Shown: positions 6,465 through 29,515, counted from the stretch's first letter. The stretch: DNA of 58,253 nucleotides from an uncultured Bacilli bacterium (GCA_947631655.1 CANRME010000001.1:1-58253), one strand, 5' to 3'. Notes: generated by a model from the letters alone, not told the origin. A program made the numbers and translations.

Positions 6465-6507
6465 GTAATCTGCGATGATCTTACCAAAGTTTTTAGAAAA
6501 TTACATT

Positions 6508-6540
6508 AAAAAACGACGTTAAAGTCGTTTTATTTTTTTG
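6508..6540. terminator. Bidirectional hairpin terminator between the convergent cobB gene and the glycosylation operon
   Basis: Stem aaaacgac/gtcgtttt with A-run and T-run flanks. It overlaps the last codons of the 6519-8054 gene. Confidence 0.6.
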
Positions 6541-8054
6541 ATACATTCATTACATTTTTTTAAATATTTTAGTGATATTAAGGCACATCCAAAGAAATCT
6601 TTTAAAGCTAAATACCATTGTTCTTGTTTATAATACGCATTTGCTCTCTTAAGATGTTCTTTCAAATCTATATTAAATAAATAATTGATATGGTAACTAC
6701 CGTTTTTTATGCTAATATTTTCGTATATTTCGTTAAAGTAATAATTAGCTAAGTAGTAAAAATAACATTTATTTTTATTACTATTATCGATTTTAGTTAA
6801 CAGATCTTTACTATTAGTCCTTATAATTGAATCATATAAATTTTCTAGGTCATCCAAATTTAATTTTTTAGAATTAGGTAAATATAAATTAACAGCTTTT
6901 GCAAAATTACCTAAATAATAATAGTATCTGGCTTCTAATATAGAATTTTTAAAATGTATTTGATATTTTTTTATTTGTTTACTAACTTTTTTATTTGGAT
7001 ATTTTATTATTTTATTTAATATTCTTTTATTAAAATCTTGATTTAAATAATTTATTCTTGTACTATTTGATAAATACTTATTCATTCTATCTTCATTTTT
7101 TTTGCCATCCTCCCATTGACTTTTCATTCTAATAGGATGCTTTATATGACAACAAGTAGCCGATGGTACTGGTATAATCTTTACCCCATTTTCAATACAT
7201 AGAGATACAAAGGTAGTATCATCACATCCCCATCCAACTAAGAATTCCGCAAAACCACCAATTTTTTCAAAATTTTTCTTGCTAACAGCAAATAAAAAAC
7301 CATATACCATTCTGTATAATTGCCAAGAATCATACATACTAATTTTATTATTACTTACCCATAAGTTTTTCATACTAGACATTTTTTGTAACATATTAGT
7401 TTCACTCATCATATTATAAGTCCAACTTCCTCTAAAATCAGTTATAAATCGATTATCTAGCCAAAAACAAGGTTCCTTTTTATATATGAATTTTTTTAAA
7501 TCTCTTATTGGAGGAATATTTTCGATATCTTCTCTAAAGCCAAAAAATATTGTACTATCTAGATATTCTTGTTGTCTTTTTACAATTTCATCAATAGTAA
7601 AGGGAAATAATATAATATCTGAATCACAAAAAATGATTAAATCTCCTGAAGCATATTTGCACCCCATATTTATTCCTTGAGCTTTTCCTAAATGGTATTG
7701 TTTAATGTACATTAATTTAAAACTAAAATCCTCTTTTAAGATAAAATCTTCTGTAGTATCGGTACTTCCATCATCTACTACTATGACTTCTAATTTATTA
7801 TTAAAGTTATGACATAAATAAGTATTTTCAATTGATTTTAATGTATATAGTAATGTATTCCCAGAATTCCAAGTAGATATTACAATACTAACTCTATATT
7901 TGCATTCTTTTAAAGGAAAATTATTTATTGAATTATAGGGTTCTAAATTAAGAGATTCTTTAAATCTGTTTTTATATTCTTTTGCAATATCTTGATAATC
8001 GTTTATAAATTTTTTTATCTCAGGAGAAAAATTATCTTGAACTAATTTTCCCAT
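6519..8054 (-). CDS. Family 2 glycosyltransferase with a C-terminal helical-repeat (TPR-like) region
   Basis: VSIVISTWNSGNTL...VVDDGSTDTT and DSD motif. The C-terminal roughly 170 aa are rich in Y/N/K helical repeats. Confidence 0.8.
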   Translation of the reverse strand: MGKLVQDNFSPEIKKFINDYQDIAKEYKNRFKESLNLEPYNSINNFPLKECKYRVSIVISTWNSGNTLLYTLKSIENTYLCHNFNNKLEVIVVDDGSTDTTEDFILKEDFSFKLMYIKQYHLGKAQGINMGCKYASGDLIIFCDSDIILFPFTIDEIVKRQQEYLDSTIFFGFREDIENIPPIRDLKKFIYKKEPCFWLDNRFITDFRGSWTYNMMSETNMLQKMSSMKNLWVSNNKISMYDSWQLYRMVYGFLFAVSKKNFEKIGGFAEFLVGWGCDDTTFVSLCIENGVKIIPVPSATCCHIKHPIRMKSQWEDGKKNEDRMNKYLSNSTRINYLNQDFNKRILNKIIKYPNKKVSKQIKKYQIHFKNSILEARYYYYLGNFAKAVNLYLPNSKKLNLDDLENLYDSIIRTNSKDLLTKIDNSNKNKCYFYYLANYYFNEIYENISIKNGSYHINYLFNIDLKEHLKRANAYYKQEQWYLALKDFFGCALISLKYLKKCNECIKKIKRL

Positions 8055-8812
8055 TTAACTGTGCCCTCTATTGGATTGTCACTTTCATTAGAATATCCCC
8101 CTAAATAATATTTAACTGTTACTTCCTTATTAGTTAATACTTTAACATTATTTTGCATTAATAATTTCATCATTTTTTCATCCTCAGGATTACACTCATC
8201 ATAATCTTTTTGAGTATACTCACTTGGTATTTCTTTATTATTAAATAATTCTGCTCTAAGCAACCAGACATTTGTATCTACAGTATACCCAAATCTATCA
8301 TGCCAAATATTACTACCTCTTTTAACTACCCCTGCTTTAAGCATATCCTCATACATTTCTAATTTTTGTTTATGCGTTCTACCCCAAGGATATTCTTCTT
8401 TTAAATATGGTGTCCCATCTTTATATAAAACTTCTCTATAAGAATGTACCGCTTCACAATTTTCTTTTAATGCAAAATTATATAATTTTTCTAAATGCTC
8501 TGGATAAAATTCATTATCATCATCTAGAAATGAAAACCAGCCCTTTTTGACTTTATGAATAGCATATGTTCTAAGTTTAGCCAAAACATTTGGGCCACTT
8601 TTATCTTCTTTATTCCTTTTATAATACTCCCATTCTATCTTAGGATCGTTTTTATACTTTTCATTTAGCATCTTTAAAGTTTTAGAACAATCATCAATTA
8701 TTATTAAATGCTTTACATTTTTATATGTTTGTATTTGAACAGTTTTTATAGCTCTTTCTAACAAATTTGGACGATTTTTAGTAATCGTTATTACTGTTAT
8801 TAATTCATGCAT
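8042..8812 (-). CDS. Family 2 glycosyltransferase
   Basis: ITVITITKNRPNLLERAIKTVQIQTY...IIIDDCS and LDDDN motif. Overlaps both neighbouring genes. Confidence 0.75.
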   Translation of the reverse strand: MHELITVITITKNRPNLLERAIKTVQIQTYKNVKHLIIIDDCSKTLKMLNEKYKNDPKIEWEYYKRNKEDKSGPNVLAKLRTYAIHKVKKGWFSFLDDDNEFYPEHLEKLYNFALKENCEAVHSYREVLYKDGTPYLKEEYPWGRTHKQKLEMYEDMLKAGVVKRGSNIWHDRFGYTVDTNVWLLRAELFNNKEIPSEYTQKDYDECNPEDEKMMKLLMQNNVKVLTNKEVTVKYYLGGYSNESDNPIEGTVKWEN

Positions 8813-9500
8813 AATATTCTTCTACTCCTTTTAATTTATCCTGATAATAATCTAATATTTTATCTTCACTTCCAAAAAGCATATTTATTTGAGAAGTATA
8901 TTTACTCATAGCTAAAGCCTTTTTCATTAGAATATCTTTTGGTAATTTTATTACTTCTATTTTTTTATATTTTTTAGGAATTATTCCTTCATAAGAAAAA
9001 TCAACATAATATTTTACAATATAACCTTTTTCTTTTAAATATTGTCCTACTTTATTTACAATTATATGATCAACATGATTTCCAATTCCTAAAGGAAAAT
9101 ATAATTTATCTTTTTTAGTAACTAATTTAAGTAAATCATTGCTAATATCTAAATATAAATCTTGATCTGCCACATGAATTTCTTTAAATATTGATCCATC
9201 TATAGAATACATATGTTTCTTATTATAAATACGATATATAGCATCACAATATTTTAATGATACATTCTTAGCTTTTATTATGGTACAAGCATTTTTGTTT
9301 TCTTCTTTACGTTCTCTAAAAGGGTCTTTAATATCCCAATATTTATGTAGATCTTCGGCATAGTTAGAAAATGGCTCTTTTACTTCACTAAATATTGTAA
9401 TAATATGGGGATTTTTTTGAGCTAAATAATCTAAATATATTTTTCCGCCACAAGACCCAATAGCATCATCAAAATGAGGACTTATATAATAAACAGCCAT
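8805..9500 (-). CDS. PIG-L/LmbE-family N-acetylglucosaminyl deacetylase
   Basis: ISPHFDDAIGSCGG and HVDHIIV motifs. Confidence 0.8.
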   Translation of the reverse strand: MAVYYISPHFDDAIGSCGGKIYLDYLAQKNPHIITIFSEVKEPFSNYAEDLHKYWDIKDPFRERKEENKNACTIIKAKNVSLKYCDAIYRIYNKKHMYSIDGSIFKEIHVADQDLYLDISNDLLKLVTKKDKLYFPLGIGNHVDHIIVNKVGQYLKEKGYIVKYYVDFSYEGIIPKKYKKIEVIKLPKDILMKKALAMSKYTSQINMLFGSEDKILDYYQDKLKGVEEYYA

Positions 9501-9504
9501 TTTA

Positions 9505-10671
9505 TTATACTCCTAAAAATTTACTCATCTTGTTATAGTTAACATCAAATAAGTCATGATAAGCTAAAAAATTCCAAGCAACATCTTGATAAGCCCACAA
9601 CACAGCATCTTTTCCTTTAGAAATTATTATATCTTCATATTCTTGACATTTTTTTTGATTCCCTAGAAAAGCATAAGACAGATATAAATAATAATAGTGT
9701 TCTAAGGATTCTGGTTCTCTTTTTTTCCATTTTTCTCTTTCGCGTACAGATTTTAAGAGCAAATCTTTATAATCTTTATGTATCATTTTTAAATAAATAG
9801 CATATGAATAATCAACAGCAAAATGATGTTTTTTAGTTGTTTTATAAAGTTTTTCCCATTTCTTAAAATATTTTAATGCTTCTTTTTTATTCCCATTTAT
9901 TAAATATAATTCAGCTAATTTTCTGATGCTCCAAGCATCAGTATTACAATCTTTTATTGCTTCAATAAACATCTTTTCAGCAATTGAGTATTCCTTATTA
10001 TAAGCTAGTTTAAATGCTTCTTGAGGTTTTTTCCAAGATTCTAAATACATTATTTCCCCTCTATTGGGGGGGTGATTTAAGCCATAACCAAATATTAATA
10101 ATTTCTTATTAATATTCTTCCATTTAGTTTTTTCACAACATAGTTTAATATATTCACAATCTTGAACTACATTTTTATCTAAGGAAGCGTGAGGGAATTC
10201 AATAGACTTAGCAATTTCACTTCTTACCATAAATGCAGAATTATCACATCTTCCTAATTCAGGATACCCATCAATATTTTGATTATATCTTAAATCTTCT
10301 GCTCCACATAATACTAACCCTATACTTTTATCCTCTTCTAATACTTTAACCATTTCTTCCAAATAGTTTTCTTGATATATATTATCATCATCAAGAAAAC
10401 ATAGATATTCTCCTAAATCCAAATTCTTAATAGCCCATCTTAATAAAGGATTAGGAGTTCCATTAGGCATATTTGCTCCAGGTTCTTTTGCTCCTAAAGA
10501 AGAGGAAAAACCTAAGGTACTACGTTGTTTATTAGGATATTCAGTTGGCAAAATACCATCTCCCAATACAAAATGATGATAATCTTTATATGTTTGCTTA
10601 TCAACACTTTCACATGCTTGTTTAAGAGAATCGCGGTTTAATGTCACGGTGACAATACTTACTCTACTCAT
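9505..10671 (-). CDS. Family 2 glycosyltransferase with a C-terminal TPR domain
   Basis: VSIVTVTLNRDSL...DKQTYKDYHHFVLGDG and LDDDN, followed by TPR-like repeats (AEKMFIEAIK, LAELYLINGNKKEALKYFKK). The likely start is the ATG at 10671 (MSRVSIV). Confidence 0.8.
   Translation of the reverse strand: MSRVSIVTVTLNRDSLKQACESVDKQTYKDYHHFVLGDGILPTEYPNKQRSTLGFSSSLGAKEPGANMPNGTPNPLLRWAIKNLDLGEYLCFLDDDNIYQENYLEEMVKVLEEDKSIGLVLCGAEDLRYNQNIDGYPELGRCDNSAFMVRSEIAKSIEFPHASLDKNVVQDCEYIKLCCEKTKWKNINKKLLIFGYGLNHPPNRGEIMYLESWKKPQEAFKLAYNKEYSIAEKMFIEAIKDCNTDAWSIRKLAELYLINGNKKEALKYFKKWEKLYKTTKKHHFAVDYSYAIYLKMIHKDYKDLLLKSVREREKWKKREPESLEHYYYLYLSYAFLGNQKKCQEYEDIIISKGKDAVLWAYQDVAWNFLAYHDLFDVNYNKMSKFLGV
10066..10072. 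repeat. G7 homopolymer (C7 on the coding strand) inside the GT2-TPR gene
   Basis: ctattgggggggtgat, encoding HPPN. One of the two longest G/C runs I found by eye. Confidence 0.85.
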
Positions 10672-11779
10672 ATTTTTTCCTTTCATATAAATCATTAAAC
10701 AATTCAATATATTGCTCTGCAATTGAATCTAAATTATATTTATTCATAACATATTTCATATCACTTTTAACATTGTAATTATCTTTTCCTTTTATAATTA
10801 CCTTAATAGCTTCATCAACTGTTTTAACATTAAAATGTGCATTCCCAGGCGGTACTACCTCATTTAAAGCTCCAACTCCATAACTTATAACAGGAGTCCC
10901 TACACTTATGGAATTTAAAAGAGTTAACCCAAACGTTTCAGGTAATTTTGATAAAAATAAAGTAAATTCTCCTAATTTATAGTATAAAGGTAAATCATTG
11001 TAATCAATCCATTTATGAAAGACTACAAATTTTTCTAAATTATTATCTTTTACATATTTTTGCACTTCATTTATAAAATCTTTTTCTCGATTTAAGTTTA
11101 TTTCTTTAGCTTTAGGTGGTAAAGGTATTAATAATCTATATTTATTATCAATGGTTACTAGTTTTTTTAAGATTTCAATAGCTGTAAAATGACCTTTTTC
11201 AGGATCTGGACGATGAGGAAATAAAATATATTTATATGCACTATCATATGGGAAATATTTATTAATCTTTTTTTTATCTACTTGAGGATTTAAAAATATT
11301 TCATCAACATAACATGGTATTTGATAAACTTCATTTTTATTAATGTAATCAATTAATTGTTTTTTTACAAAATTTGTTAAAACTACCATTTTATTCCATT
11401 CACTTTGAAAAACACTCATTACCTCTCTTTCATAGCATAATGTATTTAAAGATAATAATTTTGGTTTATCAGATTTTATAGGAAAATTTCGGTCAATCAT
11501 CCATATAATATCAGCTTTTTTTTCTAATTTTTTTATAATTTTAAAATTATTATAAATATCTTTAGGATTTAAAAAATCTCTTTCCATATCTACTAATGAA
11601 TGATCAATACAGATATTTTTAGCAAATTCATAATCATTTCCATCAGGACAAACAATTTGAAATTTTATGTTTTTATTATTTTTTTCAATATATGTTATTA
11701 AATTTTTTAGCCAAACCTGTACCCCACCAGCTAGATGATTATCATACATTGGATAATATAAATATATTAATATGTTCAT
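10664..11779 (-). CDS. GT4-type (GT-B fold, family 1 Pfam) glycosyltransferase
   Basis: The C-terminal half carries an E-x-F-G-L...E-like signature (PETFGLTLLNSISVGTPVISYGVGALNEVV). The likely start is MNILIY at 11779, preceded by GGGAGTG. Confidence 0.8.
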   Translation of the reverse strand: MNILIYLYYPMYDNHLAGGVQVWLKNLITYIEKNNKNIKFQIVCPDGNDYEFAKNICIDHSLVDMERDFLNPKDIYNNFKIIKKLEKKADIIWMIDRNFPIKSDKPKLLSLNTLCYEREVMSVFQSEWNKMVVLTNFVKKQLIDYINKNEVYQIPCYVDEIFLNPQVDKKKINKYFPYDSAYKYILFPHRPDPEKGHFTAIEILKKLVTIDNKYRLLIPLPPKAKEINLNREKDFINEVQKYVKDNNLEKFVVFHKWIDYNDLPLYYKLGEFTLFLSKLPETFGLTLLNSISVGTPVISYGVGALNEVVPPGNAHFNVKTVDEAIKVIIKGKDNYNVKSDMKYVMNKYNLDSIAEQYIELFNDLYERKKYE

Positions 11780-11783
11780 CTTA

Positions 11784-13235
11784 TCACTCCCAATAACAAC
11801 TATCTTCAATTTTTTCTGCACCTTTTAAAGGCTTTTCGATAGGAAAAATCCAATTTTTATTCCAATATCTATTAACATTTAAACAAGTACAATATCTTTT
11901 AATTTTAATTCCCCACCAATTTGGTAAATAACTACATAATTCTATAGAACTTTTTCCAATATTTTTTATATAACTAGCTAATAAATATCCATAAGCTCCT
12001 GCTCCAATAAATGCTATATCAAAATCAATTTTTGAAATATCTTGTTCCATTTTAGCTAAAGATTCAAAAAACGAATCATATCCTTGATTATTACTTAGTT
12101 GAGTTTCCAAACATTGATAAGTTTTAATTTCCATCTTTGGATATTTATAATCATATAAATGATTTAATTTATTTTTCTGTATTTCGATACTTTTAGAATA
12201 GGGACTTATTATTAAAATTTTTTTATTTTCTAAAAATTTAAACCATTTATTTTGAAAAGGATTAGTTAATAAATTCCAATCATAGTTTAAACGTGGATTA
12301 GCTTGAATTTTATTTAATACCATAGCCAACCCCTCAGCTAATTCTTCTTTACCATAACATAGATTAAAATCACAGTTTTTTACGGCTTCAATATGCTGTC
12401 TAGCAAATTCTGAAACAGCATTTATATTATTATCTTTAGCAAAAAAACCAGATGTTTCAAACAGATATTTTAACCAAAATTCACTATAATTATCAATCAA
12501 TCCTGTTTGTTGTTGAATATATTGTTTTATTATCCATAACTCTGTATTACCTATTCTTGCCATCATAAATGGTTTGTTAGATTTTATATAATCACATATA
12601 TTATCCTCCGAACTATGCTCATATTTATTACAATAATCATATAAATCATAAATAGGTTTAACTGATTCATATAACCATTCATGAAAAACTTTCCAAAATG
12701 AATAATTATTAATAGATTCTCCTATATTACCTTCTACATATATTTTCATAGTTTTATTAGTTACCTTTATTTGAGATTCTTTTTTATATAACTCATCTTT
12801 TATTATATAGGGGATATTATATTTATTAAATAATATTTCTAAATAATATGCTAGTTCATTATATCCATATATAATAGCATTATTATACTTTTTTAATATA
12901 GTTTCTCTATTAGCAAAAGAAATTAAGTCATTTATTTTATTAAGAGCATCGTTTAAAAAATCATCATCATAACAAAATCCTATAATCGTATCATTAGAAA
13001 TTATTGGAATATATTCTAAATTAGTTGTATTTAATACCTTATGGCCCTCCATTAACCAATTATCTTTAGTTAAATAATCATAATTTATATTGTTACCTTG
13101 GCATATAAATCCTAAATAATGATTCCAATAATACAAAACCTTATATTTATCAGTACAAGAATCAATTGTTTTTAAATCTTTCTTATTTTTTATATTAATT
13201 ATTTCATAATTTCCTTTACAAATTCTTAAAGCCAT
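11784..13235 (-). CDS. Unknown 483 aa protein; possibly a GT-D/DUF1792-like glycosyltransferase
   Basis: MARIGNTELW and a C-terminal FIGAGAYGYLLASYIKNIGKSSIEL resemble the GT-D fold. AAGGAG precedes the ATG at 13235. Family assignment is weak. Confidence 0.45.
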   Translation of the reverse strand: MALRICKGNYEIINIKNKKDLKTIDSCTDKYKVLYYWNHYLGFICQGNNINYDYLTKDNWLMEGHKVLNTTNLEYIPIISNDTIIGFCYDDDFLNDALNKINDLISFANRETILKKYNNAIIYGYNELAYYLEILFNKYNIPYIIKDELYKKESQIKVTNKTMKIYVEGNIGESINNYSFWKVFHEWLYESVKPIYDLYDYCNKYEHSSEDNICDYIKSNKPFMMARIGNTELWIIKQYIQQQTGLIDNYSEFWLKYLFETSGFFAKDNNINAVSEFARQHIEAVKNCDFNLCYGKEELAEGLAMVLNKIQANPRLNYDWNLLTNPFQNKWFKFLENKKILIISPYSKSIEIQKNKLNHLYDYKYPKMEIKTYQCLETQLSNNQGYDSFFESLAKMEQDISKIDFDIAFIGAGAYGYLLASYIKNIGKSSIELCSYLPNWWGIKIKRYCTCLNVNRYWNKNWIFPIEKPLKGAEKIEDSCYWE

Positions 13236-14328
13236 TTTTCTTCTCCTTATAATATACCCAATCATCTAATTTATAATCATCTTTTCTTTGTTCCCATATA
13301 AAATATGGTAAATCATCACGATAATGAGCACAATAATTACATAGTTCAAAAGGTTCTTTTAACTTTTCTTTTATTTTCTTACCAGTAATATCATCATAAA
13401 TGTTTATTAATTTTCCTTTTTTAGCAAATTCTTGATTATATTTATCATTAAGATAATTAATGGTAAATGGTAAAGGACAGGGAGCTAAATATCCATTTTG
13501 CAAATTGATACAAACGCAGTTATTTAAAGTTTTATATGGATATTTCTGCTTTTTAGCTAATAATATTGGTTTAAACTTATTAATATGTTCTAGGAATACC
13601 TTAATACCTTTATTCTTTAAATTAATTACAATATCATCAATGGTATTATGTAAAGGAGGATATACAGATATATCCAAGATTACATTATTATTTTTTAAAC
13701 AATTAATCATATTATTATCAATACTCTTTAACAATAAACCATTAGTAACTACTCTTAAATCAGTATAGGGATAAATTTCACGAATCATTTTTATATATTT
13801 AGGTAATTCGGGATTTAAAAATGGTTCGCCCCCCATTATTCTTATTTTAAAAATATGAGGAATTAATTGTTTCATTCTTTTAAAATCTTTTTCATATTGT
13901 TTAAAACTTTTTATTTCTTTTGATGCAATATTAGCAAAATGACTACATCCTTTACAATTCATATTACAGCAATCAATAATATTAATTTCCAAATAATTTA
14001 AGTAAGTTACTTCTTCGAATTTAAAAAACTTCGTATAATCAAGTTCTTCTTTGCCTAAAATCATTTCAATAGGAATAAAGAATATTTTTTGATTATCAAA
14101 TCCTAAAGCAATTAAATTTTTATATACTTCTTCAATATTAATATCATCGGCTATGAATGATGGTATAAGAATATTTTCATTATTATATTCCTTCTTAAAT
14201 TTATAAACACTTATTACTCCGTTTTCTGCAAATTCGTTAGCATCAAAAGAAATAATTTTTTTAATCTTTAATCCTCTATCTACTAATTTTTGTTTAATAT
14301 TATCGCAAGATATTAATACATATTCCAT
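13216..14328 (-). CDS. Radical SAM enzyme (paralogue C, with a roughly 100 aa N-terminal extension)
   Basis: CNMNCKGCSHF (CxxxCxxC), GGEPFLNPEL, and a C-terminal CNYC pair. Confidence 0.8.
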   Translation of the reverse strand: MEYVLISCDNIKQKLVDRGLKIKKIISFDANEFAENGVISVYKFKKEYNNENILIPSFIADDINIEEVYKNLIALGFDNQKIFFIPIEMILGKEELDYTKFFKFEEVTYLNYLEINIIDCCNMNCKGCSHFANIASKEIKSFKQYEKDFKRMKQLIPHIFKIRIMGGEPFLNPELPKYIKMIREIYPYTDLRVVTNGLLLKSIDNNMINCLKNNNVILDISVYPPLHNTIDDIVINLKNKGIKVFLEHINKFKPILLAKKQKYPYKTLNNCVCINLQNGYLAPCPLPFTINYLNDKYNQEFAKKGKLINIYDDITGKKIKEKLKEPFELCNYCAHYRDDLPYFIWEQRKDDYKLDDWVYYKEKKNGFKNL

Positions 14329-14331
14329 AGC

Positions 14332-15249
14332 CTAAGTCCATTCTTTAATATCTTTTCTAGAACTTTCCCACTTTTGTTCATAATCTTTAACATCAGGATT
14401 GCAATAACGACAAAAAGGAGCTGGTTTACTTAAAAAATCAAAAATTTCTTCTTTGTTTTTAGCTTTATAAATATCAATATAATCATCTTTACAAACTTGT
14501 AAATCTTTTTTAAAGTACTTATTAAAATGTTCAATATTAGGAATTAATGTACAAGTATACAATTTACCTTCTTTAAGCATAACACATTCATTAGATAAGA
14601 AACACTTGTAAAAACTTTTTCGAGCATCTCTTTTTCCATCTTCTTGTAATTTTATATTATACCAAATTTGTTCTTTATCAGTATTATCATAAAATTCAAA
14701 ATTTACATGATATTTTAGAGCTTTCTTTTTCATTAAATCATAGTCTAACTTTAAAGGATATTTAGTTACAGATAATATTATATTATTATCATGTAAACAT
14801 TTCCAAAAATCTTCTTGCATGTCATTAACTAATATTCCGTTAGATATTACTCTTATTTCAGTTAATTCTTTATCAGGGAAACACTTTCTAGTTTCTTTTA
14901 TAAATTTACATATATCTTTATTAAGTAATGGTTCTCCACCCAATATGTGAATGGATTTTGCTTTACCTTCAAATAATGTTGACATTCTATTAATATCTTT
15001 TTTAAAGTCTGCAAAATTAGTAAATTTAGGGTTTGCTAAAGGAGAAAAGTGATCGCATCCTTTACAATTTAAATTACAATGATCGGTAGTATGATACTCA
15101 AAAGATATATATGGTCCCCGCATTTTGTGCATTGTTAAAACCGCAATATCTTCAACTTCCTTAGCCCAATAATTGCATTCTTTTTTTACTTTTCTTAACT
15201 CTTGTTCCATTTCATTTACTTTTTTTGTTAATTTTTCAATTTCTTCCAT
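14332..15249 (-). CDS. Radical SAM enzyme (paralogue B)
   Basis: CNLNCKGCDHF, GGEPLLNKD, and a C-terminal CRYC pair. Confidence 0.8.
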   Translation of the reverse strand: MEEIEKLTKKVNEMEQELRKVKKECNYWAKEVEDIAVLTMHKMRGPYISFEYHTTDHCNLNCKGCDHFSPLANPKFTNFADFKKDINRMSTLFEGKAKSIHILGGEPLLNKDICKFIKETRKCFPDKELTEIRVISNGILVNDMQEDFWKCLHDNNIILSVTKYPLKLDYDLMKKKALKYHVNFEFYDNTDKEQIWYNIKLQEDGKRDARKSFYKCFLSNECVMLKEGKLYTCTLIPNIEHFNKYFKKDLQVCKDDYIDIYKAKNKEEIFDFLSKPAPFCRYCNPDVKDYEQKWESSRKDIKEWT

Positions 15250-15252
15250 CTA

Positions 15253-16122
15253 TTACCACTCCATATCTTTAAATATTTCTTTATATAACTTTTCATTTGT
15301 TTTAAAATTTAAGGAATCAACAAATATTTTAAACTTATTTTTATCACATTTGCTTTTTTCGCTATTATTTAATATATCCATTAGGTAAAAACAGCTATAT
15401 TTTAAATGTTCTATTAATTTTTCAACCTCGGCTTTCCTAATTTGCTTTTCTAATCTTTCTTTAAACATCATCATACAACTTACTTGACTATCAAAATTGG
15501 TATGATCTTTTATATGGGTTAAAGTGCAATTATTATCTTTATCATGTCGTAACCAATTATATACATATTTATTAACAATTTTAATTTTAGGATCTTTTAA
15601 ATATAAATCTGCCAAAAATAAACGATCTTCTCCTTGAAATATTTCTACAAAGAAAATATTATTCTTAATTATAAAATCTTTTTTATACATTCTATTCCAT
15701 ACAGTCACTGATTCAAAAAAAGTATTAAATCTACAATCTGCAGGAGTTAGAAAGTTTTCAATTTTACCATCATCATATACTATTTTATAATTTCCAATAG
15801 CAATATCACAATCCTGTATATTATTTTGAAGTATTTCTAATGTATCTTTATTTATTGTATCATCACCATCAACAAAGAATATATATTCTCCCTTAGCTAA
15901 AGAAATACCAAAGTTTCTTGCAGAACCAGGCCCTCTTCTTAATTGCTTATAAACCTTTATTCTGCTATCATGTATTTCCCTGATTTTTTCAATTGTCCTA
16001 TCTGTACTACCATCATCAATTATAATAATTTCAAAATTCTGATAAGTGCTAGTAATTATACTTTTTAGGCAACTCTCAATATACTTTTCAACATTATAAG
16101 TGGGTATAATTACACTAATCAT
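15253..16122 (-). CDS. Family 2 glycosyltransferase
   Basis: ISVIIPTYNVEKYIESCLKSI...IIIDDGSTDRT and VDGDD motifs. RBS GGAGGAG. Confidence 0.85.
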   Translation of the reverse strand: MISVIIPTYNVEKYIESCLKSIITSTYQNFEIIIIDDGSTDRTIEKIREIHDSRIKVYKQLRRGPGSARNFGISLAKGEYIFFVDGDDTINKDTLEILQNNIQDCDIAIGNYKIVYDDGKIENFLTPADCRFNTFFESVTVWNRMYKKDFIIKNNIFFVEIFQGEDRLFLADLYLKDPKIKIVNKYVYNWLRHDKDNNCTLTHIKDHTNFDSQVSCMMMFKERLEKQIRKAEVEKLIEHLKYSCFYLMDILNNSEKSKCDKNKFKIFVDSLNFKTNEKLYKEIFKDMEW

Positions 16123-17005
16123 TTTCTCCTCCTAGAGATTTTATTACTTCTTCTATTGAGGTTATATTAGCATATTTATTCAAGATTGTTATTAATTTAT
16201 TCAGAAAACTATAACTTTCTTCTCCCATTCGTTCATGATGAAGTAATATTCCTATATTAGAAGAATCATTTTCTAGTTCATTTATTATTTGGTTTAAAAC
16301 AAATTCCTCACCTCCAAAAGTATATGCTATATCCCAATCTACTAAATCAACTTGGCAATTTGCTTCTATTAGATTAAATTCATTTATATGATTCCCCCAA
16401 TAATTAGACATGGCTACAAAATTTTCCCGTTTAATAATTTTTTGGAATTTCTTATCTATTTCAAACCAAGGAGGAATAAAAACATTTATAAATTTATTTC
16501 CAAAAAGATCTTTGAGTTTATCTCTTCCTCTAATAATTTCAGATTTTACTAATTCTTCATTTCTATTTTCGGGGTATTCCGATTGTTCTTCTTTTGAATA
16601 ATTATTATGGGAATATCCATGCTGACCAATGCGTATATTACTATATTTTTTTAACTTAATAGCTAGATTATCATCAGTTTCTTTAGGTATAGCTGCAATT
16701 AATATGTTAATATTTAAATTATTCATAAATTCTATTAAATGTATTAAACTACAATTATCTACTCCAGCATCATCATCGCGAAACCAGAAATTTACTTTTT
16801 TGACTTTTAATAGATTAATTAGTGTTTCCCATTTATCTGAATCTTCGTAATAAGGTTCAATTTTAACCTCTAAATCATTATTATTTATTTGAACTGCTAC
16901 TTTTTTTAAATAAGGATTATTTACTTGATTCAAATACTCATCAATTAAACTTTCTACTTTCTCTAAAGAAATAGCAGTCATATCATAATTATTAAATCTA
17001 TTCAT
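16115..17005 (-). CDS. Polysaccharide-deacetylase-like (NodB/DUF2334-like) protein
   Basis: WFRDDDAG, GQHGYSH and LLHHERM motifs. Confidence 0.55.
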   Translation of the reverse strand: MNRFNNYDMTAISLEKVESLIDEYLNQVNNPYLKKVAVQINNNDLEVKIEPYYEDSDKWETLINLLKVKKVNFWFRDDDAGVDNCSLIHLIEFMNNLNINILIAAIPKETDDNLAIKLKKYSNIRIGQHGYSHNNYSKEEQSEYPENRNEELVKSEIIRGRDKLKDLFGNKFINVFIPPWFEIDKKFQKIIKRENFVAMSNYWGNHINEFNLIEANCQVDLVDWDIAYTFGGEEFVLNQIINELENDSSNIGILLHHERMGEESYSFLNKLITILNKYANITSIEEVIKSLGGEND

Positions 17006-17014
17006 ATTTACTCC

Positions 17015-18673
17015 TTAATTTAATTTAGTTATTTCAGGACGATAATAGCCAAATTTATAATTAGCGATTTTTTCATTTACTTTTTCGTTTAAATAAGCAT
17101 CTAAATTTTCTATTTCAATATTATTTTCATTAAAATATTTTAATAGAGGATTAATTATTTCTTTTTCAATTATCTCATTTTCTATTGGAGGAAGTTTTAT
17201 AATTATATTAGGATTAAATTTTTGCGTATTACGTAATATGGTATTTATCTGCTTTAACATTTCTTCATAGGAATTGTAAATTATTTCTTCATATTCAACA
17301 ACAATATAACCATTTGAAGTAATGTGATATCTTTTATCATAATATTCGATTCTTTCTAAAGTAAAACTTTGATCATTATATATTATTAACTTATCATACT
17401 TACTATAATTTTTATAATTAAAATCTTCCATATTAATTACAGGAATTTTATTTAAAAAAACTACACTATCTTTTTTATTTAAAAAATCTATATTATAATC
17501 TTTATACTTTTTAGAATTTTGCTGTTCGTTTGATAAGTTATTAAATGCTAGTCTTATTGTCATAGGTTTTAGTTTATTTACAATAGTACTATATATTTCT
17601 TCAGCAACTTTTTGAGTATTATTTTGCACTTTTTCTTTTGTTCTAATATTGGTTTTAAGCAACTTTATAACTTTGTTATCAAAATTATCTAATTTATTAA
17701 CATCTAAATAATCAACTCCATAAACTCGCTTTAATTCTTCACACCATTGTAATTGATCTTCCATATAAGATATCCCGGGTAAAAGTAATATATTTTCTCT
17801 TCCTGAAAGAGATTCCATAGTAGAATTATATCCCGGTCTTAATATACACAAATCAACAACTTGAAATAAAGCATCTAAATTAGTTTCAAAATCAACTATT
17901 TTTATATTATCATTAATTATATAAGATTGTAAATGTTCTTCTAAATATTTACTATAAGGACCTAAAACTAGTATTGTTTGGACATTTAATCCTTTTTTTA
18001 CTAATTTATTTGTCATAATAATAGCTTTTTTAAATATTTCATCACAAATATTATTACCTATATGCCATCCGCCAGCTCCACAATTAACAACTATATTTTT
18101 ATCATATTTATCAATATTATATTTCTTTATTATTTCGTCTTTTACTTCCTTTGATGGTTCGTTAAATACACCACTTAAATATTTTATTTTTTCTGAATAA
18201 TTAACAAAATTTCTTACTTCTCTTGAAGTTATATCATTAAGAAAGCATTCTTTATCCTTTAAAACAATTAATTTTTCATATTGGTTTAGTACACCATTAT
18301 AATAATAATTTTCAAACTCTGAACTACTTAATCTATTTAAAATTAATATTTTAGAAACATTTAATAAAGCTGGTAAATTTAAATAAAAATCTTCAGGATA
18401 TGTATCTTCAATTATTACATCCGGTTTTATGTTTTCAATTAACTTGTTTAACAATTTGTTCATAATTAATATTTCATTATTAGATTTTAAAGTATATAAC
18501 ATAGGGAAATTATAGACTTTATAATTGTAGTTATTAAATATTTCAGTAGATTTTGCTTGAGTAATAAATGAGATTTCTGCATTGTTATTTAAATATTTTG
18601 ATATTGTAAGAGCCAGTTTAAAATGACCAAAACCAATTCCATTTTGAAGCATAAATACAATTTTCTTTTTCAC
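17015..18673 (-). CDS. GT-B-fold glycosyltransferase-like protein (MurG/GT28-like N-terminus) with an unknown C-terminal roughly 170 aa
   Basis: The N-terminus FMLQNGIGFGHFKLALTISKYL resembles a glycine-rich GT-B loop. AGGTGG precedes the GTG at 18673. Confidence 0.5.
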   Translation of the reverse strand: MKKKIVFMLQNGIGFGHFKLALTISKYLNNNAEISFITQAKSTEIFNNYNYKVYNFPMLYTLKSNNEILIMNKLLNKLIENIKPDVIIEDTYPEDFYLNLPALLNVSKILILNRLSSSEFENYYYNGVLNQYEKLIVLKDKECFLNDITSREVRNFVNYSEKIKYLSGVFNEPSKEVKDEIIKKYNIDKYDKNIVVNCGAGGWHIGNNICDEIFKKAIIMTNKLVKKGLNVQTILVLGPYSKYLEEHLQSYIINDNIKIVDFETNLDALFQVVDLCILRPGYNSTMESLSGRENILLLPGISYMEDQLQWCEELKRVYGVDYLDVNKLDNFDNKVIKLLKTNIRTKEKVQNNTQKVAEEIYSTIVNKLKPMTIRLAFNNLSNEQQNSKKYKDYNIDFLNKKDSVVFLNKIPVINMEDFNYKNYSKYDKLIIYNDQSFTLERIEYYDKRYHITSNGYIVVEYEEIIYNSYEEMLKQINTILRNTQKFNPNIIIKLPPIENEIIEKEIINPLLKYFNENNIEIENLDAYLNEKVNEKIANYKFGYYRPEITKLN

Positions 18674-18682
18674 CTGAACCAC

Positions 18683-19474
18683 CTATTTTTCTAAAAATGC
18701 TTGTTTTATAATATTAGAAATATCTATTTTAGTATTTTCATTAATTTTATTAGAAATATATACTAAGTATTCAATATTCCCATCTCCTCCTTTTATAGGA
18801 GAATAAGTCATATTTTTGATATAAAACCCATAACTATTAAAAGTATTAATTAAATCTTTTATTATACTTAAATGAACTTGTTTATTTAATATAATACCTT
18901 TGTACAAATCCGCTATTTCTTTTCCACATTCAAATTGAGGTTTTATAAGACAAACAATATCGATTTTAATACTTTCATTATATATTTTTTCTATTATCTT
19001 TTTTAATGATATAAAAGAAACATCACAAGTTATAATATCTAAATTTTCAAAATATTTATGTTCTAAATTACGAAAATTAGTTTTTTCATATAATTCTATT
19101 TTAGGATTATTTCTTAAAGATTTATGTAATAAGTCAGTTCCAACATCTATAGCTATAATGTGTTTGGCACCATTTTGCAAAGCACAATCACAAAAACCGC
19201 CGGTTGATGAACCAATATCCATTACATACAAGGATTTTAAATCAATGCCAAATTCCTTAATAGCTTTTTCAAGTTTTAATCCCCCACGAGACACATATTT
19301 AAAAATATCATTAGCAATTATTTCAATTGTATCTTCCTTATTAACAACAAAATTGCTTTTCATTATAATTTTATTATTACATTTGACATATCCTTTTTTA
19401 ATTAATTCTTGAGCTTTTGCTCTCGATGGAGCCATTTTTCTTCTAACTAATTCTTTATCAATCCTATTTTCCAT
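18683..19474 (-). CDS. tlyA: TlyA-family 16S/23S rRNA (cytidine-2'-O)-methyltransferase
   Basis: S4 RNA-binding N-terminus plus an FtsJ-like domain (YVSRGGLKLEKAI, MDIGSSTGGFCDCAL, DVSFISL). Confidence 0.9.
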   Translation of the reverse strand: MENRIDKELVRRKMAPSRAKAQELIKKGYVKCNNKIIMKSNFVVNKEDTIEIIANDIFKYVSRGGLKLEKAIKEFGIDLKSLYVMDIGSSTGGFCDCALQNGAKHIIAIDVGTDLLHKSLRNNPKIELYEKTNFRNLEHKYFENLDIITCDVSFISLKKIIEKIYNESIKIDIVCLIKPQFECGKEIADLYKGIILNKQVHLSIIKDLINTFNSYGFYIKNMTYSPIKGGDGNIEYLVYISNKINENTKIDISNIIKQAFLEK

Positions 19475-19482
19475 ACTAACTC

Positions 19483-20514
19483 CTAAAAAGTTCTTGATAC
19501 AACTTCTACTGTTTGGTTTAATTCTTTTTGTAATTCAAAATTTTTAGTCCATATTTGAACTACAACGTCGGTACCTTTTCTATTTAATTTTTTTGAAAAG
19601 ATCATATTACTATTTAATTCATTTGCAAAATATTTTATTATTTGTTCACTTTGCTTTTCACCACACATTAGAACAATAATCCCTTTATCGTTCAAATTAG
19701 GATATATATTTTTCATAGCCTTAACAATTTTTTCAGTCGCATTTTGGCTAAAAGGAACCTCTGTAACTATAGCATCATAACTATCCGTTAAATGCACTTC
19801 AGAAGCATCTCCCACAATATGCTTAGAACCATAATATTCTAGACCTGGCTTTAATGTTGAATCAATATCAATACTAGTTATGTCGATATTTGGGTTAATA
19901 TATTTATACATATATACTATACCGCCACCACCAGCAAATGGTTCAATTACTTTTTTCTCTTGAAAAGGCATTGACAAATTTACTAAGCATCTTGCATCTT
20001 CTACTGGTAGTGCTCTTCTTCCAAGTTCACTACCATCTCCTCTATATCCAATTATTTCTTTTTCATTACCATCTTGGGATACAATTTTAAATGGACGATT
20101 ATGAGGAGATTGGGTTTCATATAATTCTTGACTTTGAATATAAAGATTTTTTAAAGAAAATTTTAGACCTTTCCACACTAAAGGATTAATTGTTTTTAAA
20201 TTTGTTTTATTAATTGGAGTAGTTATATCAAAATCTAACTCATAAAATTCATCAAAATAGCCAATATAAGATAAACGACTAACTGCCTTATCCCAATTTT
20301 GCTTTTTTATAAAAAATGATACTAGACCTTTAATGTCTCCTAAAGGACCATTTTTTATAAATAAAACATCTAGATCATACATACTCATTAAAAATTCCAT
20401 AATTCCTAATTGTTTTGATTTAACTCTAGAATTTCTTAACTTACAACAAATAACATTATAATCTAAAACATAATTTTTTAAACTTACTCCATCTACTTCA
20501 ATAAATCTATCCAT
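19483..20514 (-). CDS. SAM-dependent methyltransferase, UPF0020/Trm11-like
   Basis: ALPVEDARCLVNLS...VIEPFAGGGGI...DAIVTEVPF. GAGGTG precedes the ATG at 20514. Confidence 0.6.
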   Translation of the reverse strand: MDRFIEVDGVSLKNYVLDYNVICCKLRNSRVKSKQLGIMEFLMSMYDLDVLFIKNGPLGDIKGLVSFFIKKQNWDKAVSRLSYIGYFDEFYELDFDITTPINKTNLKTINPLVWKGLKFSLKNLYIQSQELYETQSPHNRPFKIVSQDGNEKEIIGYRGDGSELGRRALPVEDARCLVNLSMPFQEKKVIEPFAGGGGIVYMYKYINPNIDITSIDIDSTLKPGLEYYGSKHIVGDASEVHLTDSYDAIVTEVPFSQNATEKIVKAMKNIYPNLNDKGIIVLMCGEKQSEQIIKYFANELNSNMIFSKKLNRKGTDVVVQIWTKNFELQKELNQTVEVVSRTF

Positions 20515-20526
20515 CTTACACCTCAT

Positions 20527-21396
20527 TTATATTTCTATAACTTTTTTTACTGTTCTTAAGTCTCCAATATCATTGTTTTGGCATTCTTCTAAAAAATCTT
20601 TATCTAACAGTTCTTCTATTGGAGTATTTGCATATTCCATATATTTATCTTTATTAACTTGCTCAATTAGAAACTGTTTACCAACTGTTCCTAGACAATA
20701 TTTACATGCTTCAAGACATTGTGAATTATTTAAATAATTATTAAGTTTTTTTTCAAAATAAACGTCATCAGTTATCTTTAAGCCATTAATTTCAAATGAT
20801 TGTCCTTTAATATTTTTAGATAAAGCCATCGCTTCTGGACATTTAAAAATATAGTTTTCATAAACGTTATAACATTGCCATTTATTTGCAACAATACAAG
20901 TTTTATATATTTTTTGAACAAGTTCTAAATCATTATTTTTCTGATAAGAATAAGGTTCTCTAAAGTATTGATACATATATATAATAATTTTTATTTTATA
21001 TTTTTCTTTGACTTTTTGAGACCACTCATATATTTTTTTACTTTTTTCTAAAGAATAATTATAATTAGATATCTCAATCATATCGAGATTTTTCAATACA
21101 TCATCACTAATTTTTTCTAATGATACTCCATTAGTCGGTAAAGATATTTCATCAGCAATTCCTATTTTTTTAATTTCTTCAGCTATTTTAGCTAAGTCAG
21201 GATTTAATGTTGGTTCGCCACCTAATAATCTAATAACTTTACAATGCAAACTTTTTTTTAATAAGTTTAAACTTTGTATAGTTTTATTGATATCCATAAA
21301 ACATTTCTTTTCTAGTGGTGTTAAATGACTGCATCCCCTACAAGATAAATTGCAATGATTTGAAACATGTATTTCTAAACTTTCTACAACAATCAT
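20527..21396 (-). CDS. Radical SAM enzyme (paralogue A)
   Basis: CNLSCRGCSHL, GGEPTLNPDL, and a C-terminal CKYC pair. AAGGAG precedes the ATG at 21396. Confidence 0.8.
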   Translation of the reverse strand: MIVVESLEIHVSNHCNLSCRGCSHLTPLEKKCFMDINKTIQSLNLLKKSLHCKVIRLLGGEPTLNPDLAKIAEEIKKIGIADEISLPTNGVSLEKISDDVLKNLDMIEISNYNYSLEKSKKIYEWSQKVKEKYKIKIIIYMYQYFREPYSYQKNNDLELVQKIYKTCIVANKWQCYNVYENYIFKCPEAMALSKNIKGQSFEINGLKITDDVYFEKKLNNYLNNSQCLEACKYCLGTVGKQFLIEQVNKDKYMEYANTPIEELLDKDFLEECQNNDIGDLRTVKKVIEI

Positions 21397-21416
21397 ATTA
21401 TTCTCCTTCAATTTAC

Positions 21417-22376
21417 TTATTTTTTTGCGTTTATTTTACTTTTAAAATATTTTATTGTTTGTTTTATACCTTCTTCATAAGAAACTTGTGGAATCCAATC
21501 TAATAACCCTTTAGCTTTGGCAATATTAGGTTTTCTTCTTTGAGGATCATCACTCATTTTTGCCATATAAACTATACTAGATTTAGTACTTAATAAATTT
21601 TTTATATACACTGCCACTTCTTCTATAGTTTTTTCCTGAGGATTTCCAATATTAATTGGACCATTACTTTTTTTAGCTAAATTCATATATTTATATATCG
21701 CATCGATTGTATCATCGACAAAACAGAAACTTCTTGTTTGTTTCCCACTACCATATATTGTTATTGGTTCATTATTTAAGCCTTGGGTAATAAAATTAGA
21801 GATTATTCTTCCATCTTCGGTACTCATTCCTGGTCCATATGTATTAAACAACCTGGCTACTCTTACATCTACATCATATTTTCTTATATAATCATAAATT
21901 AATGATTCTGCAGCTCTTTTACCTTCGTCATAACAGGATCTTACTCCTATTGGATTAACATTCCCCCAATATTCTTCATTTTGGGGAGATTCTAATGCAT
22001 CCCCATATACCTCAGAAGTAGAAGAATGAAAAAGTTTCCGTTTTGTTCCTTTAATTGAATCAAGCAAATTTTTTATTCCTATAACACTAGCTTCCCATGT
22101 TTCAATAGGATGATCCAAATAATATTTAGGAGATGCGGGACAAGCAAAATTATATATTTCATCAATATCCAATTCGTTTATAACATTAATAATTTTATTA
22201 TCACATATATCCATTTCAATAAAGTTTACTTTTTTTCCAAGATAAGCTTCAATGTTTTCCTTATTACTAGTACTTAGATTATCAATTACATAGATAGTAT
22301 CATTAGTTTCTTTTAATATTTTTTTTACCATATTACTACCTAAAAATCCACATCCACCAGTTATTAGTATTCTCAT
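21417..22376 (-). CDS. uxs: UDP-glucuronate decarboxylase (UDP-xylose synthase), SDR family
   Basis: ILITGGCGFLGSN, STSEVYGD, CYDEGKRAAESL, RLFNTYGP. Confidence 0.9.
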   Translation of the reverse strand: MRILITGGCGFLGSNMVKKILKETNDTIYVIDNLSTSNKENIEAYLGKKVNFIEMDICDNKIINVINELDIDEIYNFACPASPKYYLDHPIETWEASVIGIKNLLDSIKGTKRKLFHSSTSEVYGDALESPQNEEYWGNVNPIGVRSCYDEGKRAAESLIYDYIRKYDVDVRVARLFNTYGPGMSTEDGRIISNFITQGLNNEPITIYGSGKQTRSFCFVDDTIDAIYKYMNLAKKSNGPINIGNPQEKTIEEVAVYIKNLLSTKSSIVYMAKMSDDPQRRKPNIAKAKGLLDWIPQVSYEEGIKQTIKYFKSKINAKK

Positions 22377-22409
22377 AACTACCTCCTATAAAAAGTAAAA
22401 GTTTAAAAT

Positions 22410-22438
22410 ATTTTATCTTTTTTTTATAGTAATGTCAA
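22410..22438 (-). promoter_or_regulatory. Sigma70-type promoter of the 15-gene operon
   Basis: The minus strand reads TTGACA, 17 nt, TAAAAT, about 30 nt upstream of the uxs RBS. Confidence 0.5.
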
Positions 22439-22492
22439 TAATTAGCTAAAGACTCACTTAATGACTAATTAGCTAAAGACTCACTTAATGAC
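22439..22492. repeat. Perfect tandem duplication, 2 x 27 bp (taattagctaaagactcacttaatgac), abutting the -35 box
   Basis: The two copies (22439-22465 and 22466-22492) are identical. Each contains the 8 bp palindrome TTAGCTAA. Confidence 0.9.
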
Positions 22493-22567
22493 ATAAAAAA
22501 AATTAAAGCTTACTCTTTGAGTTTAAATATTATACTCAAAAAGGCTCTAATCAAATAGTATTTTAAA

Positions 22568-23251: not shown

Positions 23252-23310
23252 TCTATATCACCTAATTTTAGATATACCCTAGTTAAAGAAATTTATACTA
23301 ATGTAACAAA

Positions 23311-23386
23311 AATGCGCAGTTTTTTGAAAATACTGAGCATTTTTTAATTTTTTACACCCTATTTTGGCAGTTATTGCGCATTTTTT
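23311..23386. repeat. Left copy of a roughly 75 bp direct repeat flanking the Fic gene
   Basis: aatgcgcagttttttgaaaatactgagcattttttaattttttacaccctattttggcagttattgcgcatttttt. About 88 percent identical by eye to 24571-24645. Confidence 0.8.
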
Positions 23387-29439: not shown

Positions 29440-29515
29440 TAATTATCACCTAGTAATAGTCTGAGTAAATATTAAAAAAACATTCAAAAACTGAATGTGT
29501 TCTTAAATATAGATA

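Follow-up and report, generated by a model that had tools for sequence, protein, structure and literature searches.

What does a bacterium make with seven glycosyltransferases (GTs), three radical S-adenosylmethionine (SAM) enzymes and two RNA-methyltransferase-type proteins that are encoded side by side, and on what are the sugars placed? The question is raised by an operon of 15 genes (G1 to G15) in a stretch of DNA from an uncultured Bacilli bacterium (GCA_947631655.1 CANRME010000001.1:1-58253). The whole stretch of 58,253 nt is referred to as the window, and the genes are numbered from the 5' end of the operon (22376) to 6519. An earlier note on this DNA described a glycosylation-type operon without export machinery and pointed to a cytoplasmic acceptor. 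Here we report that the operon is probably a horizontally mobile cassette for the assembly and tailoring of an oligosaccharide in the cytoplasm. Its product is possibly a saccharide metabolite of the aminoglycoside or oligosaccharide-antibiotic kind, protected against by RNA methyltransferases. That is the least certain step of the interpretation, and several other acceptors are weighed against it below.

The 15 genes are one tightly packed operon, as the earlier note had described. The listing of open reading frames (ORFs) gives 15 consecutive minus-strand ORFs from 22376 to 6519 with no plus-strand gene between them. The junctions of the longest ORFs range from a 59-nt overlap to a 9-nt gap. 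With the database start codons (which give 289 amino acids (aa) for G2, 343 aa for G3 and 552 aa for G5) and with internal ATGs, the overlaps become short, 4-20 nt (8042/8054, 8805/8812, 10664/10671, 13216/13235 and 16115/16122). Families were assigned by sequence and profile searches of Pfam, NCBIfam and the PDB, and nearly all of the family calls made previously were confirmed (Table 1). The GTs comprise one GT28-like, one GT4, four GT2 and one GT-D-like protein. The remaining products are a UDP-xylose synthase (UXS), two de-N-acetylases (one PIG-L, one NodB/DUF2334), the three radical SAM enzymes and the two proteins of RNA-methyltransferase type.

By sequence and predicted structure, G2, G8 and G9 are members of the SpeY/HygY family of twitch radical SAM sugar dehydrogenases and epimerases. 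All three score above the Pfam cut-off for Radical_SAM. A profile built from G2, G8, G9 and other relatives has PDB entry 7WZV as by far its best match (E 6e-88). This entry is SpeY, an enzyme of spectinomycin biosynthesis, labelled 'Twitch Radical SAM Dehydrogenase SpeY' in Foldseek, and G2 alone matches it with E 2.5e-43 over residues 5-279. The AlphaFold2 (AF2) model of G2 (pLDDT 96) superposes on SpeY with a TM-score of 0.93 and a root-mean-square deviation of 1.6 Å in Foldseek; the next folds are viperins, MoaA, BtrN and peptide-modifying enzymes, with TM-scores of 0.3-0.5. G8 and G9, which are only 24-27% identical to G2, were placed in the family by alignment. Eight cysteines are invariant or nearly so in this alignment; three make up CxxxCxxC, and the other five belong to the C-terminal twitch region. 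C15, C19 and C22 are invariant across 42 sequences, G8 and G9 among them, as are the auxiliary-cluster cysteines C167, C186, C231 and C234.

A search of the plasmid collection with G2 returned one full-length match, the radical SAM gene of a Streptomyces cluster (L118), together with a partial match in Planctomyces. The cluster carries APH(7'')-Ia at 95% identity, which marks it as the hygromycin B cluster, and its radical SAM gene is therefore the HygY orthologue. G2 is 31% identical to this orthologue over 93%. The cluster lies at the extreme end of an 840-kb linear plasmid (Streptomyces sp. SAT1, NZ_CP016083.1, 819437-840523) and also contains a PhyH-type oxygenase and two ATP-binding cassette (ABC) exporters. 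In the alignment, Cys175 of G2 corresponds to Cys183 of the HygY orthologue and to a serine of SpeY, and an equivalent of Cys175 is kept in G8 and G9 with the same C-x10-C spacing. We take Cys183 to be the residue of the epimerase-to-dehydrogenase switch of HygY. The title of a paper cited in PMC10991966 describes HygY as an epimerase that becomes a dehydrogenase through a single cysteine mutation. Because the equivalent cysteine is kept in all three paralogues, G2, G8 and G9 are each predicted to be sugar C-epimerases. Membership of the SpeY/HygY family makes protein or peptide chemistry less likely, and the tailoring of sugars in a glycoside more so.

Related loci were found by searching genomes and metagenomes with G5 and G15, and all 15 proteins were used to map them. 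As a marker, G5 is rare. A Glyco_tran_28_C segment is followed in it by about 190 residues without assignment, and its family has 85 representatives at E<=1e-30 among 1.84 billion. Three loci (L005-L007) are near-identical relatives of the window. The other Bacilli versions (L008, L010-L014 and L038) share 14 genes with the window in an unchanged order, at 44-82% identity; their records are labelled as uncultured gut Bacilli or are unlabelled metagenomes, and that of L011 is labelled Muribaculaceae. Among the proteins of the cassette G12 is conserved best, with 77-82% identity between Bacilli versions. A rearranged core of nine genes (G1, G2, G3, G5, G6, G11, G12, G14 and G15) is present in Paenibacillus lautus (L001/L015) and in Ca. 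Enterousia and other gut Alphaproteobacteria (L016-L018 and L047). The P. lautus core additionally has G13, while the alphaproteobacterial core has no PIG-L gene. Compared with the core, the Bacilli version would be enlarged by PIG-L, two GTs and two radical SAM paralogues. In the gut Alphaproteobacteria a single ORF of 667 aa combines G14 and G12 (L018:10850-12853; also L016, L017 and L047), which supports the view that the two act together. A 377-aa protein of unknown function in the alphaproteobacterial version has no similarity to G10 or to any PDB chain.

The surroundings of these loci contain signs of mobility. Conjugation genes of the VirD4/VirB4 type (type IV secretion system) lie directly upstream of the cassette in L008, and the ORF adjacent to the cassette in L014 has a serine-recombinase N-terminus, as judged from its sequence. 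In L038 a UDP-glucose 6-dehydrogenase gene begins 2 nt after G15 as a 16th gene that feeds UXS (L038:11556-12722). It is followed by ORFs for an XRE regulator, a DUF2958 protein and relaxase-like proteins (L038:12802-21301), which suggests that this cassette is on a conjugative element. No flanking gene is common to the window and any related locus. These comparisons of gene content and similarity show the cassette as conserved as a unit and moving between phyla. A phage or known-plasmid origin was also considered, and no relative of G5 was found in IMG/VR or among the PLSDB plasmids. A further copy of the cassette (L019:10001-11682), in the 1.46-Mb chromosome of a 'Bacilli bacterium', has in-frame stops (mostly TAA) and frameshifts throughout; these reflect errors of long-read assembly or decay of the cassette, and the copy was excluded as evidence.

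Conservation as a unit bears on the idea that the operon O-glycosylates a protein in the cytoplasm before its export or assembly, as for serine-rich-repeat adhesins or flagellin, with the helical tails of G12 and G15 serving in substrate recognition. Such a role would suit a set of enzymes that are all soluble. A GT-D-like domain is present in G10 (31 bits, cut-off 27; NCBIfam GT-D_rel 20, cut-off 75), a protein with no PDB relative by sequence, and the GT-D fold was first described in serine-rich-repeat adhesin glycosylation. G12 and G15 have weak matches to a PDB chain named GalT1, G11 has weak matches to SdgA, and two of the GT2 enzymes have non-catalytic C-terminal tails. These tails had been called similar to tetratricopeptide repeats (TPRs), a description that we could not reproduce. 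Pfam detects no TPR in the window proteins, including G12 and G15, a faint TPR_19 match occurs in the P. lautus orthologue only, and the two tails are dissimilar to each other. Because the tails are not verifiable as TPR, the argument from them for protein glycosylation is weakened. The flanks differ in every genome, and neither a gene for a candidate substrate protein nor accessory Sec genes recur next to the cassette. The target would also need to be universal, given the movement between phyla, and enzymes of the SpeY/HygY type are not known from protein glycosylation. We therefore consider a protein acceptor unlikely.

The host range bears even more directly on a spore-surface polysaccharide of the crust or exosporium, which would be made in the cytoplasm of the mother cell and would explain the missing export step. 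The earlier note had offered a spore layer as one possible acceptor. G12 weakly resembles SpsA (E 7e-4), a neighbouring gene belongs to the YetF/DUF421 family, and P. lautus is a spore former. The core cassette is, however, present in non-sporulating gut Alphaproteobacteria (Ca. Enterousia and other metagenome-assembled genomes (MAGs)), and in Bacilli MAGs the cassette is on conjugative or recombinase-bearing elements. The promoter match of the operon is sigma-A-like, and no sporulation gene was seen in the 58-kb window. A spore layer is hardly credible on these grounds.

Whether the product leaves the cell by a dedicated route was approached through membrane segments and transporters. In a Kyte-Doolittle scan the maximum 19-residue mean of the 15 products is 1.52 or less, and the neighbouring YetF and BaxI membrane proteins reach 2.8. 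The statement that none of the products spans the membrane is thereby upheld. No Pfam or NCBIfam match to a priming transferase was obtained for the 15 products, and none was seen in the related versions examined. A flippase or polymerase and a Wzm/Wzt exporter are absent from the window and from all Bacilli versions, including the 10 kb downstream in L038. In P. lautus, however, the cassette ends with a 585-aa ABC_membrane+ABC_tran exporter, a half-transporter of the PglK/MsbA type. The variant L009 has two half-transporters with six transmembrane segments and a nucleotide-binding domain (TMD-NBD), and the same kind occurs in the hygromycin cluster. A major facilitator superfamily (MFS) gene is found a few kb away from the cassette in the Alphaproteobacteria. 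The window itself is without Wzx/Wzy, priming transferase and exporter, as had been noted, but the absence of export is not a property of the family because the P. lautus and L009 variants carry ABC exporters.

Some of these transporters would also have a place in the assembly of an envelope glycoconjugate. Soluble GTs would extend a universal lipid acceptor at the inner membrane face, and a transporter of the host would flip the product. The acceptor could be diacylglycerol, which UgtP-type GT28 enzymes use, or undecaprenyl phosphate that a housekeeping enzyme has primed, and the cassette would alter the surface, for example in phage or immune evasion. The GT2, GT4 and GT28 content fits the weak matches of the operon GTs to TuaG, EpsD, WcaA, PglI and lipopolysaccharide GTs. 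The top PDB match of the G5 profile is a processive diacylglycerol glucosyltransferase, albeit a weak one (E 1.6e-4), and G15 is similar to chondroitin synthase (E 2.5e-8). The P. lautus half-transporter and the MFS gene near the alphaproteobacterial version agree with this view, and a universal lipid acceptor would explain how the cassette works after transfer between phyla. Nevertheless, there is no priming transferase, flippase, polymerase, ligase or other transmembrane protein inside the cassette in the versions read. The three radical SAM enzymes have their sole characterised relatives in aminoglycoside pathways, and G3 and G4, the methyltransferases described next, are left without a role. 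An envelope product is accordingly rather improbable in our estimate.

G3 and G4 are difficult to place in a glycan pathway. G3 is a borderline match to Pfam UPF0020 (22.6 bits, cut-off 22.3) and has weak sequence matches to Trm-G10 and to TIGR01177 (36, cut-off 317). The top Foldseek matches of its AF2 model (pLDDT 93.8) are aTrm11, Trm11-Trm112 and Trm14, over about 365 columns and with TM-scores of 0.59-0.64; both domains are aligned with aTrm11 (E 1.5e-14), and TrmN is also among the matches. Trm11, Trm14 and TrmN are THUMP-containing tRNA N2-methylguanosine (m2G) methyltransferases. The sequence identity of G3 to the archaeal Trm11, Trm14 and TrmN proteins is 13-15%. Throughout its family motif IV is EVPF, in contrast to the DPPY of the m2G enzymes, and it does not match the (D/N)PP(Y/F) pattern typical of exocyclic-amine methyltransferases.

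The G3 family is tightly conserved (about 343 aa, with 48 invariant columns in 36 sequences) and is found in Clostridia, Treponema, Paenibacillus, Natronospora and one archaeal MAG. No characterised member was found, and this orphan family merits study in its own right. Solo members in unrelated contexts (L003/L004, L036 and L037; gene 10001-11035 and equivalent positions) are 44-47% identical to G3, and the in-cluster G3 of P. lautus is 55-59% identical to solo copies versus 45% to the copy in the window. As the solo members are equally similar and the in-cluster copies are not closest to each other, the simplest inference is that the family has a substrate independent of the cassette, plausibly an RNA. 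G4 contains S4 (E 3.7e-11) and FtsJ (E 2.1e-38) domains. It scores above the cut-off of TIGR00478 (222.4 bits, cut-off 185.8) and below that of the equivalog model NF049952 (213.9, cut-off 250). On these matches G4 is a member of the TlyA rRNA (cytidine-2'-O)-methyltransferase family. TlyA lies between G3 and G5 in the window and in L005-L007, L013 and L014; it is an accessory insert, since it is missing from the otherwise identical cassettes L008, L011 and L012.

The pairing of G3 with an adjacent, optional TlyA suggests immunity by methylation of the target or, far less likely, an RNA as the acceptor of the glycan. In the latter case the two methyltransferases would mark or prepare a site in rRNA or tRNA (or the ribosome), and the GTs and radical epimerases would elaborate a glycan there. 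An RNA-methyltransferase fold is a core gene in three lineages, its family evidently has a substrate independent of the cluster, TlyA was inserted directly beside G3, and a universal RNA would fit the transfer between phyla. To our knowledge, however, the enzymatic oligoglycosylation of bacterial RNA has no precedent. No GT has a recognisable RNA-binding domain, the EVPF motif of G3 departs from that of the m2G enzymes, and TlyA is dispensable for the cassette. An RNA acceptor is therefore very unlikely. If it were true, the operon would encode the first enzymatic RNA-oligoglycosylation pathway in bacteria, spread by mobile elements.

We return to the reading of the operon as a pathway for a saccharide metabolite. 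From UDP-sugars including UDP-xylose and UDP-N-acetylglucosamine (UDP-GlcNAc), the GTs would link about five sugars into a chain in the core version and about seven in the Bacilli version. The GlcNAc residues would be de-N-acetylated to glucosamine. Each radical SAM paralogue would then abstract hydrogen from a ring C-H and the conserved cysteine would return it, with one sugar stereocentre inverted in the manner of HygY. The Trm11-fold methyltransferase and, where present, TlyA would modify the RNA of the producer itself and so provide immunity.

We favour a metabolite because every characterised relative of the radical SAM enzymes belongs to an aminoglycoside pathway and because G13 is closest to GlcNAc deacetylases of glycopeptide antibiotics. 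The best PDB relatives of G13 are Orf2*/Dbv21, the teicoplanin/A40926 pseudoaglycone deacetylases (E 5e-9 to 4e-7). Further reasons are that TMD-NBD exporters occur in variants, that two RNA-type methyltransferases are otherwise hard to place, and that distant Streptomyces relatives of G5 have an APH(6)-type kinase, a sulfotransferase and a PhyH dioxygenase as neighbours. These relatives are actinomycete G5-like GTs of about 556 aa and 25-29% identity (L023:1971-15350 in Streptomyces dysideae; similar in L020-L035). Their neighbours, which also include a pyridoxal phosphate-dependent decarboxylase fusion, a PHP phosphoesterase and a GNAT protein, form an uncharacterised small biosynthetic cluster.

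Several observations weigh against a metabolite. None of the 15 products matches a cyclitol-forming enzyme or cyclitol aminotransferase family, and the window has no aglycone pathway and no sugar aminotransferase; an Aminotran_3 gene is present only in the P. lautus variant. The Bacilli versions have neither an exporter nor a regulator. Seven GTs are many for a small molecule, and GT2, GT4 and GT28 enzymes without transmembrane segments are also normal where lipid-linked glycans are assembled on the inner membrane face. G5, G11 and G13 resemble natural-product enzymes only weakly. As far as we know, aminoglycoside producers use rRNA methyltransferases of other families for immunity, and methylation by TlyA sensitises to capreomycin rather than protects. 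A metabolite therefore stays a tentative assignment. It is more doubtful that human-gut Bacilli make a new class of oligosaccharide metabolite that is directed at the ribosome, with immunity through RNA methyltransferases.

Full-text literature searches, which included PDB 7WZV and TlyA in biosynthetic clusters, found no description of this gene combination, in agreement with the impression that it is not a described pathway. Because all of its parts come from known superfamilies the operon is not categorically new, but there is a realistic chance that it encodes new chemistry. If the metabolite reading is true, a mobile route to an extensively modified oligosaccharide is common to uncultured low-GC gut Bacilli, P. 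lautus and gut Alphaproteobacteria. Its combination of three radical SAM sugar epimerisations with xylose and free amino sugars would be without a described parallel outside the aminoglycoside pathways of actinomycetes, and radical carbohydrate chemistry of the SpeY/HygY type would be extended to the human gut microbiome. The operon offers three new enzymes for probing the cysteine switch between epimerase and dehydrogenase, in a 16-kb cassette that has no membrane parts and is directly expressible. It also makes testable the substrate, and a role in immunity, of a core and widespread family of Trm11-fold methyltransferases. Should one of the competing readings be true, the cassette would remain an unusually composed, portable module for the glycosylation of surfaces or proteins.

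Both ends of the operon have candidate signals (Table 1). The promoter proposed for it, TTGACA-17-TAAAAT, is a consensus match only. It is the top-scoring promoter-like site in 6000-23500, but such matches as a class are not enriched over shuffled sequence in this AT-rich DNA (about 25% G+C in the window), and the proposal stands in that restricted sense. The hairpin that had been placed at the end of the operon is real. The terminator scanner reads it on the plus strand, where it would end transcription of the convergent SIR2 gene, and it is probably a bidirectional terminator. A 27-nt tandem repeat abuts the -35 hexamer; no chance match to it is expected (0) and it occurs nowhere else in the window. 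The repeat accounts for the end coordinate 22492 of the earlier note and may be an operator or an insertion scar. No riboswitches, RNA genes or tRNAs were found across the whole window.

The host context of the window is that of an ordinary Firmicute chromosome. Genes for WhiA, ClpP, GAPDH, MurE, FemAB, NrdDG, FtsEX and sortase indicate a walled Firmicute. The cassette is flanked by SIR2, YetF and Fic genes. Fic-domain genes are at 23385-24476 and 33835-34773 (the latter fused to a RhuM domain), XRE-type helix-turn-helix genes at 971-1690 and 33266-33688, and a YhcG/DUF1016 nuclease gene at 52290-53282. With these genes the region looks rich in genes of mobile-element or defence type. An anti-phage defence system was considered for the cassette as well; PADLOC gave partial core matches only (the radical SAM core to pVip, the methyltransferase core to mad2), which are uninformative. 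Surface-protein genes occupy 27897-33090 and encode a protein with a pectate-lyase-like adhesive domain, a sortase, a 255-aa ORF without Pfam match, a flavin adenine dinucleotide-dependent protein, and a 435-aa protein with a glycine-rich domain of the ALK/LTK type (E 2e-50), which is unusual in bacteria. Two long ORFs, at 43754-45535 (593 aa) and 50544-51866 (440 aa), have no Pfam match at E<=1e-4.

Table 1. Genes of the operon and associated sequence features, with coordinates in the window
Feature	Coordinates	Strand	Remarks
G1, UDP-glucuronate decarboxylase (UXS), short-chain dehydrogenase/reductase (SDR) family	21417..22376	-	human UXS1 E 1e-91; next SDR E 5e-42
G2, twitch radical SAM enzyme of the SpeY/HygY family, predicted sugar C-epimerase	20527..21396	-	core gene
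G3, 343-aa SAM methyltransferase, Trm11 two-domain (THUMP-like + Rossmann) fold	19483..20514	-	core gene
G4, TlyA-family 2'-O-ribose rRNA methyltransferase (S4 + FtsJ)	18683..19474	-	accessory
G5, 552-aa GT-B, GT28_C-like N-terminal ~360 aa + unknown C-terminal domain	17015..18673	-	core gene; rare marker family
G6, DUF2334/NodB-type polysaccharide deacetylase	16115..17005	-	core gene; Pfam
G7, GT2 glycosyltransferase	15253..16122	-	Bacilli version only
G8, radical SAM paralogue of the SpeY/HygY family	14332..15249	-	Bacilli version only
G9, radical SAM paralogue of the SpeY/HygY family	13216..14328	-	~100-aa N-terminal extension
G10, C-terminal GT-D-like domain (residues 222-442) + unknown N-terminal domain	11784..13265	-	likely start 13235
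G11, GT4 (GT-B) glycosyltransferase	10664..11821	-	core gene; likely start 11779
G12, divergent GT2 + C-terminal helical tail	9505..10722	-	core gene; likely start 10671
G13, PIG-L/LmbE-family de-N-acetylase	8805..9500	-	
G14, GT2 glycosyltransferase	8042..8812	-	core gene
G15, GT2 with Glyco_transf_7C segment + ~170-aa C-terminal tail	6519..8054	-	core gene
Sigma-70-like promoter TTGACA-17-TAAAAT	22410..22438	-	11/12 consensus positions; ~33 nt upstream of first start codon
Perfect 27-nt x 2 tandem direct repeat (GTCATTAAGTGAGTCTTTAGCTAATTA)	22439..22492	-	abuts -35 hexamer
GC-poor hairpin with T/A runs on both sides	6510..6531		overlaps G15 stop codon, at junction with convergent SIR2 gene

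How the operon relates to known systems can be summarised through its separate parts. The closest likeness is to HygY and SpeY: G2 is a full-length homologue with the same CxxxCxxC and auxiliary-cluster cysteines, and G2, G8 and G9 share the HygY-type cysteine. The differences are that three paralogues are present per operon here and that the hosts are low-GC gut Bacilli and not actinomycetes. Unlike in the hygromycin cluster, no aminocyclitol genes surround G2, G8 and G9. Homology to the rest of that cluster was considered by comparing the HygM-like methyltransferase with G3, the GT4 with G11 and the SDR with G1, and none was found beyond the SDR superfamily. The dedicated resistance gene of an aminoglycoside cluster would be an APH/AAC or a 16S rRNA methyltransferase of the Arm/Kam type; the operon has TlyA and the Trm11-fold methyltransferase, neither of them from a known resistance family.

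The GT4 plus PIG-L/LmbE modules that transfer GlcNAc and then de-N-acetylate it (BshA/BshB, MshA/MshB, aminoglycoside BtrM/BtrD and teicoplanin Orf2*) are resembled by G11 and G13, which are two genes apart in a conserved arrangement; G11 has a weak match to BshA. The similarity is at the level of families only (E 1e-7 to 1e-9), and PIG-L is missing from the alphaproteobacterial core. G3 has the two-domain fold of archaeal Trm11, Trm14 and TrmN, but its EVPF motif IV sets it apart as a distinct bacterial family of about 343 aa. Capsule, O-antigen and teichoic-acid loci similarly have multiple GT2 and GT4 enzymes, UXS (together with Ugd in one variant) and deacetylases. The operon differs from them in having no priming transferase, Wzx/Wzy, Wzm/Wzt, ligase or transmembrane proteins, and in having radical SAM epimerases and RNA-type methyltransferases.

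The avilamycin cluster contains the UXS AviE2, the radical SAM epimerase AviX12 and the rRNA methyltransferases AviRa and AviRb. In the logic of this gene set, clusters of the avilamycin type resemble the operon in combining UXS, several GTs, a radical SAM sugar epimerase and rRNA-type methyltransferases, with soluble enzymes. The operon differs in being without a polyketide or aglycone part and without an ABC exporter, and its methyltransferases are of the Trm11-fold and TlyA families.

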